Part shown: piece by piece, positions 1 to 6,820 of the stretch
Position numbering within the stretch: position 1 is the first letter of the stretch
How the letters are laid out: each line of letters opens with the position of its first letter
Virus record (IMG/VR): IMGVR_UViG_2675903433_000007
Location: 1-6,820 of that record
Reading direction: 5' to 3' (one strand)
DNA length: 6,820 nucleotides
Source of the DNA: a virus
Lineage: Duplodnaviria > Heunggongvirae > Uroviricota > Caudoviricetes
Notes under the pieces: generated by a model
What the model was told of the DNA's origin: nothing
The model's input: only the letters and a program-made list of their open reading frames with translations
Database searches by the model: none
Made by a program: the position numbers and the translations under genes

Positions 1-102
1 CGCGTGGAGATAATCGAACCCACACAGAATATGGCCATCAGCGACATACAGGCGGCGCGCTGTGAGTCATTCACCATCAGCGAAGGTGGGCGCAATGAGT
101 AA
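1..102 (+). CDS. C-terminal fragment of a baseplate assembly protein (P2 gpJ-like), partial at window start
   Basis: Frame 1 is open from base 1 to TAA at 100-102 (…ISEGGRNE*). The stop overlaps the start of the next gene (ATGAGTAA), as in coupled tail operons, and a J-like gene is expected just upstream of a gpI-like gene. Called from position and synteny only; the 33 aa are too short to recognise. Confidence 0.5.
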   Translation, partial: RVEIIEPTQNMAISDIQAARCESFTISEGGRNE

Positions 103-703
103 TTCGTTGTTACCACCATCAGCCAGTAATTTCATGCGTTGTGCCGAAGCCGTCGGAACACGCATTACAGACATTCCGGTAGACCTCAACACGCTGTGGT
201 CGCCGGACACCTGCCCGGTGCATCTGCTGCCTTATCTCGCCTGGGCGTTTTCCGTTGACCGTTGGGATCGCAACTGGCCGGAAGAGACAAAGCGACAGGT
301 GATTCGTGATGCATGGCTGATACACCGACACAAAGGGACCATCAGCGCACTGCGAAGAGCCGTGGAGCCTCTCGGCTACCTGATTGAAGTAAAGGAGTGG
401 TGGCAACTCAACGAGGAGCCAGGAACATTTCGCATTGTTGTCGGAGTACTTGATCAGGGCATCACCGATGAAATGTATCAGGAACTTGAGCGCCTTATTG
501 CGGATGCAAAACCAGTAAGTCGCCATCTGACGGGGCTGGCGATCAGCCTGAGTGTGAACGGAAAGATTTTCGTTGGTACGGGATGCTATCACGGCGATGC
601 CCTGACGGTTTATCCCTACACCCCGGAGTCCATTATTGTCGAAGGGGATTATTTCCCGGCCTCGGCCATTCATTTAATTGATAACCTGAGAGTAAACGCA
701 TGA
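95..703 (+). CDS. Phage tail protein I (P2 gpI-like baseplate protein)
   Basis: ORF 62-703, with the likely start at the ATG at 95 (MSNSLLPP…) overlapping the upstream stop. Motifs [41 protein letters not shown] and [14 protein letters not shown] match my recollection of the P2 gpI family. The stop overlaps the next start (ATGA at 700-703). Confidence 0.85.
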
Positions 704-1878
704 CAGTGAAATACTACGCCATTTTGACTAATCAGGGCGCAGCACGGCTGGCTAACGCGACGATGCTCGGCAGTAAGCTGAATCTGACGCAAATGGCCGT
801 TGGTGATGCGAATGGTGTCTTGCCGACACCAGACCCGGCACAGACAAAACTGATTAACCAGAAACGCATCGCGCCGCTGAATCTTCTGAGTGTTGACCCG
901 AACAACCAGAGCCAGATTATTGCGGAGCAAATCATCCCTGAGAACGAGGGCGGATTCTGGATCCGTGAGATTGGGCTTTATGATGATGAAGGCGTACTCA
1001 TTGCGGTGGCGAACTGCCCGGAAACGTACAAACCGCAGTTGCAGGAAGGCAGTGGTCGTACCCAGACTATCCGCATGATTCTGGTTGTCACGAATACCGA
1101 ATCTATCACGCTGAAAATCGACCCGTCGGTGGTACTGGCGACCCGTAAATATGTGGATGATGAAGTCCTGGAATTAAGGCTGTATGTGGATGACCAGATG
1201 AGAAACCACATTGCCGCACAGGATCCTCATACACAGTATGCGCAGAAACATAATCCGACATTTACCGGAGAACCAAAAGCGCCGACGCCTGCCGCAGGAA
1301 ATAACACCACGCGGATTGCGACCACTGCGTTTGTTCAGGACGCTATTACCGCTCTGATTAACGGTGCGCCAGCCACGCTGGACACACTGAAAGAAATTGC
1401 CGCAGCCATTAACAATGACCCGAAATTCAGTACCACCATTAACAATGCGCTGTCAGGTAAGCAGCCACTGGATGAGACGCTGACTCATTTGAGTGGAAAG
1501 GATGTAGCTGGTCTTCTCACATACCTTGGTTTGGGAGAAGCGGCAAAAAGGAATGTGGGGACAGGGACGAATCAGATACCTGATATGGGTAGCTTCACGC
1601 TTTCTGTTTCAGGTACTGGATATCAAAAATTACCATCTGGTTTTATTCTTCAGTGGGGCTCAATCGGCGCACCAGGCATTGCACAGGATGTGGTAACCCA
1701 TTTCCCGATTGCATTTCCAAACAGATGTCTGCGTGTTTTGGTCTCACAAGACTACACACCAGATAGCGGGGCTGTTGGTTATATTGCCTGTGCAGGTTTT
1801 AGTCCCGACCCGGTTAAATTTATATCCAGAGCCAGTAATCCTGGCCTCGGCGCTTCATTTTTAGCGTTAGGCTGTTAA
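700..1878 (+). CDS. Tail fiber protein: constant N-terminal part (about aa 1-275) fused to variable C-terminal tip A (about 1527-1878) in the present orientation
   Basis: The N-terminus (MAVGDANG…, [85 protein letters not shown]) resembles P2 gpH / Mu S constant regions. The conserved junction motif TYLGLGE lies exactly on the left crossover site. The C-terminal about 117 aa (…[15 protein letters not shown]…) looks like a prophage tail-fibre C-terminal tip. Confidence 0.85.
1514..1539. other. Left recombination (crossover) site of the inversion system, inside the tail fiber gene
   Basis: The 26-bp imperfect palindrome TTCTCACATACC-TT-GGTTTGGGAGAA matches the gix/cix/pix/hix pattern as I recall it (TTCTC…AAACC NN GGTTT…GAGAA). 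Its inner 15 bp (1526-1540) are a perfect inverted repeat of 3438-3452. Confidence 0.75.
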
Positions 1879-1899
1879 TTTAGCTATATGGAGTGAAAA

Positions 1900-2340
1900 A
1901 TGAATTACATATATTCCGCGACTACAAACTCTTTCTATCCGCTGGAGATGAAAGAGGATTACACTCAAGCTGACTCATGGCCAGATGATGCTGTTGAAGT
2001 TGATGAGCAAGTGTATATTGAGTTTTCCGGATTACCGCCGAAAGGAAAAATCCGTATCGCTGGGGAAAATGGTTTTCCTGCATGGTCTGAAATTCCACCA
2101 CCAACGCATGAGGAACAGATTGCCGCAGCCGAATTGAAAAAACAGCAATTGATTAATCAGTCCAACGAATATATGAATACCAAGCAATGGCCTGGTAAAG
2201 CGGCTATTGGTCGTCTGAAAGGTGAGGAACTGGCGCAATATAATTTGTGGCTGGATTATCTGGACGCACTGGAACTGGTTGATACCTCCAGTGCTCCAGA
2301 TATTGAATGGCCTACGCCTCCGGCAGTTCAGGCCAGATGA
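1900..2340 (+). CDS. Tail fiber assembly protein / chaperone for tip A (Mu U / P2 G / Tfa family)
   Basis: 146-aa ORF directly downstream of the fiber gene, with an RBS-like GGAGTG before the ATG at 1900. The C-terminal motif LWLDYLDALELVDTSSAPDIEWPTPP is typical of phage tail-fiber assembly proteins. Confidence 0.8.
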   Translation: MNYIYSATTNSFYPLEMKEDYTQADSWPDDAVEVDEQVYIEFSGLPPKGKIRIAGENGFPAWSEIPPPTHEEQIAAAELKKQQLINQSNEYMNTKQWPGKAAIGRLKGEELAQYNLWLDYLDALELVDTSSAPDIEWPTPPAVQAR

Positions 2341-2917
2341 CATCCGGCGCGGTGCTGGTATCTGTTGCCGTCACCGCGTCAATGTAATCCAGCGCAGCGT
2401 TAAGTCGGGCGGTTTCTGCCTGCGTCAGATTCCGTCCGGCCTGCAATTTCAGCTGAATCAGACTAATGGAAGCCATTGCAGTATCAATCAGTGACTGACG
2501 CTGTGCTTCTGCCGCGCCTACTGCGGCGCTATGCTGTGCCACAGTATCTGTTACCCATTTCTCACCATCCCATTCATCGTATGGCGTTAACGGGGCGATA
2601 GTGGTTGTATTTTCAGGATAATCACCCGGAGCTGTGATTTCTTTCGATTCTCCTGTTTCGGTGCTATAGATGATTTCACCGCGATGGTCTGGCACATATT
2701 CCCATGAGTTTAAATCTGCCGAACGGCAGATTGCATAACCAGCCTTATGTGTGCCAGGAGCATCTAAACAGGAATATGCAGGGATACCGACACCCACAGC
2801 AAGATATTCAGTTGATGCAGAAATATACTCCCGTGTCTCACTGTCATAGTTATAAACGGTAATCTCTCCTGTCTTTGTGGCAATAAATTTACTATTCAAG
2901 ATGGCGTTATACATCAT
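2312..2917 (-). CDS. Tail fiber assembly protein / chaperone for tip B (U'-like)
   Basis: 201-aa ORF on the - strand. Its C-terminus (LNAALDYIDAVTATDTSTAPDVIWPELP) parallels the C-terminus of the + strand chaperone. Its start overlaps the stop of the upstream - strand fiber tip (ATGA at 2914-2917). Confidence 0.8.
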   Translation of the reverse strand: MMYNAILNSKFIATKTGEITVYNYDSETREYISASTEYLAVGVGIPAYSCLDAPGTHKAGYAICRSADLNSWEYVPDHRGEIIYSTETGESKEITAPGDYPENTTTIAPLTPYDEWDGEKWVTDTVAQHSAAVGAAEAQRQSLIDTAMASISLIQLKLQAGRNLTQAETARLNAALDYIDAVTATDTSTAPDVIWPELPEA

Positions 2918-3452
2918 GCAGCCCTCACAATGTAATTAAATGAAATATTACGTGGGCGTGTCTCTGCTGCACCGACAATACTGGTACTCAACCCCGTCGC
3001 TGTTCGTTTGTTATTTTTATTTCCTTCAATCAGACAGTTGTAATCATCATTACCAATTAACGAATTAGTGGCATCAATACCGTCCGGGGACAAGGCATTA
3101 GTTGTAGAACTTAAAGTCAGCATCTCGTCTGAACTTGGAAGATTTTTTAATGGTATTTCATTGCGAGAAATACCCGCGTAAAAAAAGGACTCATGCCTGT
3201 GCGCTTCAAAAGAGTCATCCTGAAGACTTAGCAAGGCACGTCCCGCATCCACCCCGCGCCCGTCATCCCAGCCACGAATAAACTCACCACGTAAATCAGG
3301 CAATTTATTTGTCGGATAAGCCTTTGCCAGTTCCGGGTATTCTTCAGCAGAAAAAGCCGCACCGTTGCATTTCAGCCAGCCTGTTGGCGGAGTGGCGGAA
3401 GGCCACGGAACAGGCACGCCAACGGGTAATGCCGAACCTTCTCCCAAACCAA
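2914..3452 (-). CDS. Alternative tail fiber C-terminal segment (tip B), promoterless and start-less in this orientation; would fuse to the constant part after inversion
   Basis: The - strand frame is open from the right crossover site through NVGLGEGSALPVGVPVPWPSATPPTGWLKCNGAAFSAEEYPELAKAY…LPDLRGEFIRGW to the stop at 2914-2916. The GLGE junction motif is shared with the + strand fiber, and the following sequence resembles the phage tail collar domain. The ORF-track Met start at 3504 is not a real start. Confidence 0.75.
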
Positions 3453-3464
3453 CGTTTTCGTTTT
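3439..3464. other. Right recombination (crossover) site, immediately upstream of the invertase gene
   Basis: TTCTCCCAAACC-AA-CGTTTTCGTTTT. The inner half-site is the exact reverse complement of the left site's inner half (GGTTTGGGAGAA). The central dinucleotide is AA here and TT at the left site, i.e. identical in inverted orientation. The outer half-site is degenerate. Confidence 0.7.
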
Positions 3465-3518
3465 TATCCCTACCTATACCAACTATGTATTTTTCACGAA
3501 ACAAAGAGGATGTTTTTT

Positions 3519-4151
3519 ATGCAAATTGGCTATATTCGTGTGTCAACAAATGACCAGAACACGGATTTACAACGCAATGCACTGAACTGCGCAGGATGTG
3601 AACTGATTTTTGAAGATAAAATCAGCGGAACGAAATCAGCCAGACCGGGATTGAAAAAACTGCTCAGAACGCTATCAGAAGGAGATACGCTGGTTGTCTG
3701 GAAGCTGGACAGACTGGGCAGAAGTATGAAACACCTGATCACGCTTATTGAGGAATTGCGGGAAAAAGGTGTTAATTTCCGTAGTCTGACGGACAGCATT
3801 GACACATCAACACCCATGGGGCGTTTCTTTTTTCACGTCATGGGGGCTTTAGCCGAAATGGAACGTGAATTAATTGTAGAGCGTACACTGGCCGGGCTGG
3901 CAGCAGCACGCGCACAAGGACGCATTGGCGGACGTCGCCCGAAGTTGACAAAAGAACAACACGGACGTCGCCCGAAGTTGACAAAAGAACAACACGAACA
4001 AATAGCGAGGCTGATTAAAAACGGTCATGACAGGAAACAACTGGCGATCATTTACGACATCGGCATATCGACGATTTATCGTTATCACCCTGTAGGCGAT
4101 ATACAGGCTGAAGAAACAACCAGGCAGACTCAGGAAAATGAAAACCGCTAA
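3519..4151 (+). CDS. Site-specific DNA invertase, small serine recombinase of the Gin/Hin/Cin/Pin family; carries an 11-aa in-frame duplication
   Basis: Start ATG at 3519 is preceded by AAAGAGGA (3503-3510). MQIGYIRVSTNDQNTDLQRNAL…LVVWKLDRLGRSMKHLI…FRSLTDSIDTSTPMGRFFFHVMGALAEMERELIVERT…GRIGGRRPKLT…QLAIIYDIGISTIYRYHP carries the resolvase/invertase catalytic-serine motif and a Hin-like C-terminal helix-turn-helix. The ORF-track extension back to 3309 has no RBS and overlaps the fiber tip. Confidence 0.9.
   Translation: MQIGYIRVSTNDQNTDLQRNALNCAGCELIFEDKISGTKSARPGLKKLLRTLSEGDTLVVWKLDRLGRSMKHLITLIEELREKGVNFRSLTDSIDTSTPMGRFFFHVMGALAEMERELIVERTLAGLAAARAQGRIGGRRPKLTKEQHGRRPKLTKEQHEQIARLIKNGHDRKQLAIIYDIGISTIYRYHPVGDIQAEETTRQTQENENR
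3930..3995 (+). repeat. Perfect tandem direct duplication, 2 x 33 bp (GGACGTCGCCCGAAGTTGACAAAAGAACAACAC), in frame within the invertase gene
   Basis: 3930-3962 and 3963-3995 are identical by direct reading. The translation is GRRPKLTKEQH-GRRPKLTKEQH. Unit boundaries are ambiguous by a few bases. Confidence 0.9.
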
Positions 4152-4170
4152 TCTGACCATTAGCGGTTTT
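4141..4170. terminator. Putative bidirectional rho-independent terminator between convergent invertase and tail protein U genes
   Basis: Perfect 12-bp stem AAAACCGCTAAT / ATTAGCGGTTTT with a 6-nt loop CTGACC. It has a T-run on the + strand and, via the AAAA at 4141-4144, a U-run on the - strand transcript. It overlaps the invertase stop codon (TAA at 4149-4151). Confidence 0.6.
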
Positions 4171-4177
4171 GCGTTAA

Positions 4178-4666
4178 TCAAAACAGCCCTTTAACGGAGC
4201 TGGCCGCGCTGTTAAGGGATGATGTGACCTTATCTTTGAAGCCGGACAGCATATCACTGAACGATGAGGATTGCAGGCGCTCCCGCAAATCCTCATCACA
4301 GCGTTCAAGGGTCAGTGAAAATTCTATCTTTTTCGCCTTACCGTAGCGATCAAACTCGGAGCGGGTCGTATTCGTTTCAGTCAGTACATACATGCCGTAA
4401 ATCTGCCCGACACCATCAATCAGAGGCCAGGGGCGTCCTGTATATGCCTGCGTGGTCAGCAACGAAAGCGACACTTCGCCACCTGTAATTTCAGGATAAA
4501 GCACACCAGAAAGAACGATGCGATCATCACCTGCACCGATATACTGCCAGCTTGCTGAACGGTTAACGCGTTCATTTTTCACATGCCGCCAGCTTTTGTT
4601 TTGCTGTAACTGCTGATGCGGCAGCGTGCGCAGCTCAAAAACAAACATGCCGTAGATCATCATCAT
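4178..4666 (-). CDS. Phage tail protein U (P2 gpU-like)
   Basis: MMMIYGMFVFELRTLPHQQLQ…RVNR…IVLSGVLYPEITGG…WPLIDGVGQIYGMYVLTET…KKIEFSLTLER matches my recollection of P2 gpU-like proteins. The ATG at 4666 is preferred over 4672 because the RBS GAGGAG (complement of 4675-4680) is only 2 nt from 4672 but 8 nt from 4666. Confidence 0.8.
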   Translation of the reverse strand: MMMIYGMFVFELRTLPHQQLQQNKSWRHVKNERVNRSASWQYIGAGDDRIVLSGVLYPEITGGEVSLSLLTTQAYTGRPWPLIDGVGQIYGMYVLTETNTTRSEFDRYGKAKKIEFSLTLERCDEDLRERLQSSSFSDMLSGFKDKVTSSLNSAASSVKGLF

Positions 4667-4678
4667 GGCCATGACTCC

Positions 4679-6820
4679 TCAATCTTTATCGTAAAAACTG
4701 CCACGCCCGGCACGGGCGCGCCGTTCCATTTCTGCCCTGACCATTTCACCGACCAGTTTCGCCAGTTCGCGGGGATTCTGTGTAACAACGTTATGCAGAT
4801 GAACATGAATTTCACCGCCAAATCCGGAGGCAACAGGCTCCCGGTTACGGGAAGTTGCAGGAACTGATGCCACTGGCGATCGTATGGCCTCTGCCACCGG
4901 GCGGGAGCTGGCCGCAACAACAGGGACCAGCGCCGGAGGCAGCGGAGCCGGAACCACAGGTGTGATATTAATTGCGGGGGCAGGCTTACTGACCTGCGCA
5001 ATCTTCCGCTCCTGCCACTCCCCACGAACGGCAAGTGCGCGGGGCAGGTTCTTAAAGACAATATCGCCGGGGCCAATACGTTTTTTCGTCTCATCAACCA
5101 GCTTACCTGTGTTATCAGCAATTTTGCTGAGTCTGCGTAGTGTACCGGTATTGCTGTCTGTGAGCGGTTTGTTGTCTTTGGGTTTATCACCTCCGGTGCC
5201 ATTGCCATTTTCCACAGGCTTCGGCGGATTGATTTTCGCAAGGTCCCCCTGAAGCAAGGCAACCTTGTCCTGAAGAATGGCCGCACGCTGTGCGTCTTCG
5301 ATTTTCTTGCGCGCCCTTTCCGCTTCATCCGGAAGCACACCGAGCTTTTCAAGTATCCACGCCAGCGTATCCAGCAACATTTTTGCAGGTGTCAGAACAA
5401 GTTGTAACGCACCGCCAAGAACGTTACCGAATGTCTCGCCAGCACTGGTACATTTATCCAGCGTTTCCTTGCTGGACTCCATCGGTGACAGCAGCGATTT
5501 AAACCAGTTAAACACCTGGCTGATCCCACTCCCGATTGCGTCAAAAACAGGACCAAACCGTTCAAAGGTTTCGCGCAACGGGGTCAGCCTTTCCATAATC
5601 CCGCTGAACACCCCGGCAAAAAATGCCCTGATGGGATCCCAGTATTTCCAGATAAGAACGGCAGCTCCGGCAAGCGCAGCCACGATAAGACCAACCGGAC
5701 TGAACAACGCCCCGATAGCGCCTCCCAGTAAAGAAACGGAACCCGTCACCATTCCCCATAGTGCTGGCAGAACCCTGACAGCATTCATTGATCCGGTCAG
5801 GAGGGAAAAACCAAGACGCAGTTTTGCCAGCGGGCCAGCAAGCACACCAATAGCCAGCGACAACGAGCCAACCGTTGCAGTCACTGCCAGCAGTGCACCG
5901 CCTGCAATCAGTAGCTGGCGCGTCAGTGCGGGATGGGCCTGCGCCAGCGCCGTCACCTTTGATACCACACGCGTGAGCCACTGCGTGACAGAACGCAGCG
6001 GACCGTCAATCAGATCTGCAATGCGGATGCGCAACCCTTCCCATGCACTGCTGAGTGATTTCAGATCGCCGTCAAGGTTGTTGGCCATAACCTTTGCCGT
6101 GCGTTCAGCCTCACCGCGCGCGCCTTCAAGTTCTTTTCTCAGTTTGGGTAAGGAGCCGTCACCTGCCGCATCAACGAGGGCCATAAATGATGTGAAAGCC
6201 TCTTCTCCGGCAATGTCCTTAAAGAACGATACCCGGTCAACTTCCCCGTATTTGCGGGTGGCTTTATAAAGATCGGCCAGCACATCCTCCATCGGGCGCA
6301 TTTTGCCGTTCGCGTCAGAGACTGCCACACCAAGCTCTTTCAGCGCCTCTGCTGCTGCCTTTGGCGGTGATGCCAGACGAGCCAGGCTGGCACGCATTGC
6401 CGTCCCGGCATCACTCCCTCTGATACCCATATTCGCCAGCACGCCCGCCATCGCTGCGGCCTGCTCCAGCGATATTCCCAGCTGACCCGCCACCGGACCT
6501 GCATATTTCATGGTTTCGCCCAGTGCGCGAAGGTCAGTGTTGGTACGGGTAAATGCTGCGGTGAGCGTGTCGCCAACCCGGTCCATCTGGTCAGCAGAAA
6601 GGCCGAACTGCGTCAGGATATTTGAGCCAATATCCGCCGTCTCGCCGAGATCCATGCCGCCAGCCGTTGCCATGCTCAGCACGCCCGGAAGCGCAGCCTG
6701 AATGGCCTGCGGAGTGAAGCCAGCCATTGCAAGAAATGCCTGCCCACTGGCGGCATCGCCTGCGGTGAACTGCGTTTCAGAGCCAAGTTTTAACGCCTGC
6801 TCACGCAGCGCCTTAAACTG
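4679..6820 (-). CDS. Phage tail tape-measure protein (P2 gpT-like), C-terminal about 714 aa; N-terminus lies beyond the window end
   Basis: The - strand frame is open from the window edge (…QFKALREQALKLGSETQFTAGDAASGQAFLAMAGFTPQ…) to the stop at 4679-4681. It is a long Ala/Gly/Leu-rich protein with a central hydrophobic block (LLIAGGALLAVTATVGSLSLAIGVLAGPL…), typical of tape-measure proteins, and sits immediately upstream of the gpU-like gene as in P2 T-U. Confidence 0.8.
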   Translation of the reverse strand, partial: QFKALREQALKLGSETQFTAGDAASGQAFLAMAGFTPQAIQAALPGVLSMATAGGMDLGETADIGSNILTQFGLSADQMDRVGDTLTAAFTRTNTDLRALGETMKYAGPVAGQLGISLEQAAAMAGVLANMGIRGSDAGTAMRASLARLASPPKAAAEALKELGVAVSDANGKMRPMEDVLADLYKATRKYGEVDRVSFFKDIAGEEAFTSFMALVDAAGDGSLPKLRKELEGARGEAERTAKVMANNLDGDLKSLSSAWEGLRIRIADLIDGPLRSVTQWLTRVVSKVTALAQAHPALTRQLLIAGGALLAVTATVGSLSLAIGVLAGPLAKLRLGFSLLTGSMNAVRVLPALWGMVTGSVSLLGGAIGALFSPVGLIVAALAGAAVLIWKYWDPIRAFFAGVFSGIMERLTPLRETFERFGPVFDAIGSGISQVFNWFKSLLSPMESSKETLDKCTSAGETFGNVLGGALQLVLTPAKMLLDTLAWILEKLGVLPDEAERARKKIEDAQRAAILQDKVALLQGDLAKINPPKPVENGNGTGGDKPKDNKPLTDSNTGTLRRLSKIADNTGKLVDETKKRIGPGDIVFKNLPRALAVRGEWQERKIAQVSKPAPAINITPVVPAPLPPALVPVVAASSRPVAEAIRSPVASVPATSRNREPVASGFGGEIHVHLHNVVTQNPRELAKLVGEMVRAEMERRARAGRGSFYDKD

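Follow-up and report, generated by a model that had tools for sequence, protein, structure and literature searches.

Does the tail-fibre locus of this prophage encode a single fibre, or two that are exchanged by inversion of the DNA between two recombination sites? The question is raised by a stretch of 6,820 bases (IMG/VR record IMGVR_UViG_2675903433_000007, positions 1 to 6,820), referred to below as the window. In it a tail-fibre gene runs on the plus strand into one C-terminal tip (tip A), a second tip (tip B) lies on the minus strand, each tip is followed by a tail-fibre assembly chaperone gene, and a serine DNA invertase gene stands next to them. From the material set out below we conclude with high confidence that this locus, part of a P2-like prophage (Peduoviridae, P88/Gemsvirus-type) of Escherichia coli or a close relative, is a tail-fibre switch with two states that an invertase drives.

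Crossover sites, fibre tips and chaperones

The window contains an inverted pair of 26-bp sites, and in both of them two half-sites of 12 bp flank the same central dinucleotide. The left site (1514-1539) is TTCTCACATACC-TT-GGTTTGGGAGAA. The right site (3439-3464) is TTCTCCCAAACC-AA-CGTTTTCGTTTT, the reverse complement of which reads AAAACGAAAACG-TT-GGTTTGGGAGAA. Direct comparison confirmed what the original prediction, made from the letters of the window, had said of this pair, namely that inner half-sites and core are the same in both, and the coordinates and codons agree with its placing of the left site on the YLGLGE junction of the fibre gene. The exact inverted identity covers 15 bp (1526-1540 against 3438-3452), or 17 of 18 positions when 1523-1540 is set against 3438-3455, and the segment between the crossover cores measures 1,925 bp (1527-3451).

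An inverted repeat of 18 nt is unexceptional in 6.8 kb of DNA, 27 inverted pairs being listed for the window; the significance of the sites comes from their match to the invertase-site pattern and not from the length of the repeat. The palindromic 26-mer pattern TTCTCNNAAACCTTGGTTTNNGAGAA matched the left site with one mismatch and gave a match in none of 200 shuffles. The 14-mer formed by core and inner half, TTGGTTTNNGAGAA, is present exactly twice in the window, both times perfectly and in inverted orientation. On the right, the claim of a 26-bp site held for the inner half and the core, but the outer half is degenerate and agrees with the inner one at no more than 5 of its 12 positions, so that the full right site is in effect one defined by analogy. 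The outer half of P1 cixL is likewise degenerate, and AAAACGAAAACG recurs unchanged at the validated right boundary of the homologous locus in E. coli E2348/69.

The constant N-terminal part of the fibre (700-1526) is common to both fibre versions and reads in frame with either tip, each tip then being followed by its own chaperone. When 1527-3451 was inverted in silico, codon 276 was joined in frame to tip B, and the fibre changed from the 392 amino acids (aa) of the present orientation to a 454-aa product reading ...TYLGLGEGSALPVGVP... The frame-preserving flip that had been proposed, with a product of 276 + 178 aa in place of 392 aa, was thus correct. Tip A and tip B are both tail-fibre C-terminal domains according to Pfam; tip B also matches S_tail_recep_bd, the receptor-binding domain of the T4 short tail fibre, although weakly and below threshold (4.9e-4). 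Both chaperone open reading frames (ORFs) are lambda-gpK-type tail-fibre assembly proteins by Pfam and PHROG. These assignments (Table 1) agree with the earlier claims that there is one chaperone per tip and that the minus-strand ORFs are a tail-fibre tip and its chaperone. The proposed likeness to the Mu G-segment, the P1 C-segment and the e14 P-region is borne out by frame, tips, chaperones and sites.

Tip B is most likely silent in the present orientation. A sigma-70 scan gave no promoter-like site upstream of it, a result that is consistent with a promoterless tip, short of proof. Here the original prediction needs one amendment, since the alternative tip is not strictly startless: a TTG at 3504, 17 codons upstream of the crossover site, opens a minus-strand ORF of 196 aa that is called as a gene in the public annotation. 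No Shine-Dalgarno sequence was found before this TTG, and the invertible architecture has probably misled the annotation into this free-standing gene call. Tip B ends and chaperone B begins within the same four bases (ATGA at 2914-2917, stop and start codon overlapping), which suggests translational coupling of the two.

The two chaperone genes converge on opposite strands and share 29 bp at their 3' ends (2312-2340). An 18-nt imperfect inverted repeat (2250-2267/2376-2393) corresponds to the homologous C-termini of the two chaperones, LDYLDAL and LDYIDAV.

Both orientations of the segment in E. coli prophages

The segment is inverted with respect to the window, with the breakpoints at the crossover sites, in one relative at 99.9% identity and in another at 97%, so that both orientations occur. 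The former is contig ABTBAB010000018.1 (GCA_040283805.1), a sequence with 99.93-99.94% identity to the window that encodes the identical 210-aa invertase. It aligns in reverse with window 1523-2865 and forward with 3438-6820, the two alignments overlapping by the 18-bp repeat, and its junction, ...GCCGC-TTCTCCCAAACC-AA-CGTTTTCGTTTT..., is exactly the predicted recombinant. As the two sequences differ by 3 mismatches in about 4.7 kb, the inversion is recent. This contig (1-4708) begins inside the invertible segment, at the equivalent of window 2865; such a start could reflect either a population of mixed orientation or a repeat that broke the assembly.

The second relative is the prophage of E. 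coli AF39. Window 1514-3455 matches it in reverse (97.07% over 1,942 bp) and 193-1540 matches it forward, and the breakpoints are again the two crossover sites. At 1,365 nt its fibre gene has exactly the 454 codons predicted, and there it is the gp53-like tip that is silent. A sister prophage, in strain ABW_A19, has the orientation of the window. Both junctions are also present as intact fibre genes in complete E. coli genomes. The counts per junction, 388 versus 38 records at a coverage of at least 80%, cannot be taken for frequencies of the two orientations, since other cassettes combine the collar tip with different partners.

Could the opposite orientations have come about by homologous recombination or modular exchange between prophages, the repeat being merely the conserved coding motif LGLGE? 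Tail-fibre modules are indeed exchanged between backbones. The same cassette (1514-3455, 97% identity) occurs in two Peduoviridae backbones of different gene order. The backbone of AF39 and ABW_A19 keeps to the canonical P2 order, in which the invertase gene is followed by sheath and tube genes running in the same direction, whereas in the window type, shared with E2348/69 and with the closest complete-genome relative (L001), gpU and the tape-measure gene are convergent with the invertase. The invertases of the two backbones are only about 74% identical in protein and 77% in DNA. The cassette itself moves horizontally and independently of its invertase. The shaft just upstream of the left site has also been replaced in L001, where 663 nt (L001 4165-4827) stand in place of 357 nt (window 1165-1521) and the fibre has 494 aa rather than 392. 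Homology to L001 resumes at 1522, inside the left site, so that the crossover site doubles as a boundary between mosaic modules.

As the origin of the two orientations, however, exchange of this kind is very unlikely. The shared repeat of 15-18 bp falls far short of what RecA needs to recombine DNA efficiently, the breakpoints are at sites matching the invertase consensus, a dedicated invertase is adjacent, and the sister locus of E2348/69 inverts in clonal cultures (PMC4272514). Site-specific inversion by an invertase of the Gin/Cin/Pin/Hin type remains our preferred explanation.

By analogy with the family, such an inversion would begin with invertase dimers binding to both 26-bp sites, after which the two sites and a Fis-bound enhancer would form a synapse on supercoiled DNA. 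Cleavage of all four strands, staggered by 2 nt, would follow at the central TT/AA dinucleotide, one pair of subunits would rotate by 180 degrees, and religation of the ends would leave the segment reversed; the identical TT core makes religation possible in the inverted configuration. The fibre would be transcribed from the late operon upstream, so that only the tip and chaperone facing away from the constant part would be expressed. The present orientation would give the 392-aa fibre with the gp53-like tip and the 146-aa chaperone, and the inverted one the 454-aa fibre with the collar-domain tip and the chaperone of about 200 aa. Since the tip domains are unrelated, the two fibre forms may be expected to confer different host ranges. 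A lysogen population would then release mixed virions, and we predict virions or tailocin-like particles with two receptor specificities.

Recognition of the switch mainly improves annotation. In the public records the genes appear only as 'phage tail protein' and 'recombinase family protein', and the silent tip is entered as a gene in its own right. With the switch recognised, the fibre products can be stated correctly (392 and 454 aa), and contig breaks and differences in orientation between assemblies are accounted for.

By Pfam and PHROG assignments, the window as a whole is the tail region of a P2-like prophage (Table 1), and its sequence is that of the complete draft contig CYGC01000080.1 (GCA_001283185.1; identity checked). 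The top DNA matches of the window are E. coli prophages, at no more than 97% identity, together with Peduoviridae phages of the P88/Xuanwuvirus and Gemsvirus type. In the latter phages an invertase followed by convergent gpU and tape-measure genes is the usual gene order. Between the convergent invertase and gpU genes of the window lies a perfect 12-bp stem with a 6-nt loop (4141-4170, AAAACCGCTAAT...ATTAGCGGTTTT), which takes in the stop codon of the invertase and is probably a bidirectional terminator.

Table 1. Positions of genes, fibre parts, sites and other features in the window, with the evidence for each.
Feature	Position	Strand	Evidence
gpI baseplate protein	95-703	+	
Tail fibre, 392 aa (whole gene, present orientation)	700-1878	+	
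Constant N-terminal fibre part, P2 gpH-like (codons 1-275 and 2 nt of codon 276)	700-1526	+	Pfam Phage_tail_fib 3e-62, residues 1-150; PHROG 327 tail protein
Left crossover site, core TT 1526-1527, on YLGLGE codons	1514-1539	.	Homologous to P1 cixR, Mu gix and e14 pix; breakpoint of inverted AF39 and ABTBAB010000018.1 matches
Variable tip A, now fused to the constant part	1527-1878	+	Pfam Gp53-like_C 5.8e-14, fibre residues 310-392
Tail-fibre assembly chaperone for tip A, 146 aa, GGAG ribosome-binding site upstream	1900-2340	+	Pfam Caudo_TAP 1.1e-37; PHROG 188
Tail-fibre assembly chaperone for tip B, about 200 aa, TfaE-like	2312-2917	-	Pfam Caudo_TAP 4.3e-31; PHROG 105; 88% DNA identity to e14 tfaE
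Variable tip B, most likely silent in the present orientation	2914-3451	-	Pfam Collar 1.5e-15
ORF with phage Collar domain, TTG start at 3504, 196 aa	2914-3504	-	
Right crossover site, core AA 3451-3452, degenerate outer half	3439-3464	.	Same outer half at E2348/69 boundary; recombinant junction in ABTBAB010000018.1
Serine DNA invertase, Gin/Cin/Pin/Hin type, 210 aa	3519-4151	+	Pfam Resolvase 1.7e-51, HTH_7 1.3e-12; PHROG 125 DNA invertase
Probable recombinational (Fis) enhancer in the 5' end of the invertase gene	3537-3608	+	Homology only
Perfect in-frame 33-bp tandem duplication in the invertase gene	3929-3994	+	
gpU	4178-4672	-	
Tape-measure protein	4679 to contig end	-	

The invertase, its putative enhancer and a duplicated-arm allele

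The invertase gene adjoins the right site and lies outside the region that the original prediction had covered. Its product, the N-terminus of which reads MQIGYIRVSTNDQ, is a small serine recombinase with the conserved N-terminal serine motif and an HTH_7 domain; Pfam places Resolvase at residues 3-135 and HTH_7 at residues 149-191, and the YIRVSTNDQ motif aligns with Gin, Cin and PinE. The protein is identical to the E2348/69 enzyme at 198 of 199 positions and shares 82% identity with e14 PinE, 74% with P1 Cin and 72% with Mu Gin. Membership of the Gin/Cin/Pin/Hin switch family, with the architecture of Mu G, P1 C and e14 P, is supported, and an enhancer of the kind known from this family is consistent with the data.

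The start codon of the invertase lies 67 bp from the right core in the window, and the same distance separates core and start codon in Mu, e14 and E2348/69; it is constant even though the intervening sequence (window 3452-3519) has diverged. This spacing suggests a fixed geometry between the site and an enhancer within the gene. In the P1 record, nucleotides 19-90 of cin are marked as a 72-bp enhancer, the counterpart of which in the window (3537-3608) is identical to P1 at 57 of 72 positions, to e14 pinE at 63 and to Mu gin at 53. Synonymous-codon identity is modestly higher in this stretch than in the rest of the invertase gene (55% vs 41%). The putative Fis-bound enhancer would thus lie about 85-100 bp from the right site, consistent with the arrangement in the Hin system (PMC3798978).

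The sole unusual feature of the locus is the invertase allele, in which 33 bp are perfectly duplicated in tandem (3929-3961 and 3962-3994). The duplicated residues, GRRPKLTKEQH, are the minor-groove arm and the start of helix 1 of the DNA-binding domain, and the link from helix E to this domain is lengthened by 11 aa with the reading frame intact. As the second copy keeps the arm and helix 1 intact, the first would act as an 11-residue insertion after helix E. The duplication junction GACAAAAGAACAACACGGACGTCGCCCGAAG gave no exact match in 185,579 species-representative genomes. The duplication was also absent among the matches listed when 3880-4040 was compared by megablast with 5,426 complete E. 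coli genomes, where the best E. coli matches listed were single-copy only (128 bp in two pieces). An exact-protein look-up returned the 210-aa allele from three contigs only; these represent at least two independent assemblies, and the allele is therefore not an assembly artefact.

Several points weigh against the view that this locus is a working switch driven by its own invertase. The enhancer is assigned by homology inside conserved coding sequence, where coding constraint confounds the identity figures, and a naive search for Fis sites at the 5' end of the invertase gene, as a pair of G-N13-C 15-mers with a distance of exactly 48 bp, found none. Nor did the sigma-70 scan give a promoter-like site near the invertase, although the scan is uninformative for this gene. 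The 11-aa duplication, rare among E. coli genomes, could impair the enzyme, and another resident invertase acting in trans could account for the flipped state of ABTBAB010000018.1. Finally, the evidence of inversion comes from other assemblies, and ongoing inversion in this strain is presumed.

These doubts meet in the alternative that the switch is locked or a recent fossil, the duplication having inactivated the resident invertase so that the segment flips only through a Pin/Gin-type invertase in trans, or never. The position of the duplication, between helix E and the DNA-binding domain, speaks for this alternative, and so does the fact that none of the other relatives examined has it, suggestive of an allele that is recent and perhaps deleterious. 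Core and inner half of the sites are those of e14 pix, and recognition by enzymes of the PinE type is therefore to be expected. Gin, Cin, Pin and Hin can substitute for one another. We nevertheless consider a locked switch rather less likely than not. The window and ABTBAB010000018.1, two assemblies with this allele and so few mismatches between them, have opposite orientations, which places the inversion after the duplication. The reading frame of the invertase is intact, and the second copy retains the arm (GRRPK), helix 1 and the residues Q, R and L that correspond to Gln151, Arg154 and Leu155 of Hin, the proposed Fis-contact patch (PMC3798978).

It is conceivable, at a little under an even chance in our estimate, that the 210-aa allele is fully active and represents a natural serine invertase able to accommodate 11 extra residues in its linker. 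A hint of activity comes from the two 99.9%-identical prophages that carry the same allele in opposite orientations. An active allele would have implications for the degree to which cleavage geometry is dictated by the length of the linker, both in small serine recombinases and in engineered chimeric ones.

Comparison with known switches

The crossover sites of the window match P1 cix and e14 pix, with which they share the core TT and the inner half GGTTTnnGAGAA. P1 cixR (TTATCCAATACC-TT-GGTTTAAGAGAA) aligns with them, as do cixL, Mu gix and e14 pix. With the Mu G/Gin and P1 C/Cin systems the locus has in common the Sc/Sv-U and U'-Sv' organisation, in which a constant N-terminus is fused to alternative C-termini at the crossover site, as well as 26-bp sites with a 2-bp core and, within the 5' end of the gene for the invertase, an enhancer that the P1 record annotates and that is putative here. 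The Mu and P1 segments differ in being 3-4.2 kb long, with repeats of 34 bp (Mu) or longer and with unrelated, longer tips. The Mu core is TC/GA and not TT, and the P1 gene cin is on the opposite side, its 3' end being where cixL lies. The backbones are also different, Muvirus for Mu and Punavirus for P1 as against Peduoviridae for the window.

Salmonella Hin/hix shares with the locus the enzyme family, the 26-bp sites and a degenerate outer half at one site. It has a Fis-bound enhancer within the invertase gene, about 100 bp from the site (PMC3798978), whose counterpart in the window is putative. Hin, however, flips a promoter and its gene lies inside the segment, whereas in the window coding ends and chaperones are flipped and the invertase lies outside.

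The e14 P-region of E. coli K-12, with PinE, shares its layout with the locus, being a two-state system in the order tip and chaperone, chaperone and tip, invertase. Core and inner half of e14 pix, TTGGTTTGGGAGAAGG, are the same as in the window. In contrast to the P2-like window with its full-length fibre gene, e14 is a defective lambdoid element with a truncated fibre gene (the stfE pseudogene), and tip A is unrelated.

The nearest relative that has been studied experimentally is the locus of E. coli E2348/69 (NC_011601.1). Goldberg et al. (2014) mapped paired-end reads from clonal cultures and so detected inversions of 1891695-1893703 and 1892127-1893703, which polymerase chain reaction confirmed (PMC4272514, Table S1); they also list like repeats for e14 and a Mu-like prophage, and inversion of e14 in cultures is reported there too (PMC4272514). 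Sites homologous to those of the window lie in E2348/69 at 1891695, 1892134 and 1893696, within 7 bp of the measured boundaries. Backbone and gene order are the same in both (gpI, fibre, cassette, invertase, convergent gpU and tape measure), and the flanks are 96-97% identical. At the right site of E2348/69 the outer half is again AAAACGAAAACG and the core TT, and the inner half, GGTTTGGGnGAA, differs from that of the window by one base. The two loci differ in complexity: E2348/69 has three sites, 215-bp repeats and four variants with three alternative C-termini, whereas the window has two sites, a 15-18-bp repeat and two variants. Their tips also differ, the window having the gp53-like tip A and the shared collar-type region being only about 82% identical, and the 199-aa invertase of E2348/69 is without the 11-aa duplication.

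Given the three sites and four variants of this relative, one might suspect in the window, too, a shufflon-like system of several sites and three or more alternative tips, as in p15B Min or E2348/69 itself. We consider this extremely improbable, as a search of the window with the TTGGTTTNNGAGAA pattern, two mismatches allowed, found no third crossover site, and only two tips and two chaperones are present. A shufflon (with the tyrosine recombinase Rci) or a multi-inversion system of the p15B Min type was likewise rejected on the two sites and the serine recombinase. The paper on phage P88 does not mention inversion (PMC5285337).

The two-state switch that we propose for the window accordingly has its place among well-studied systems. 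Phase variation has been demonstrated experimentally in the same prophage lineage, so that the finding is correct but already known, and the locus follows the paradigm of Mu, P1, e14 and E2348/69 with no new biology beyond it.

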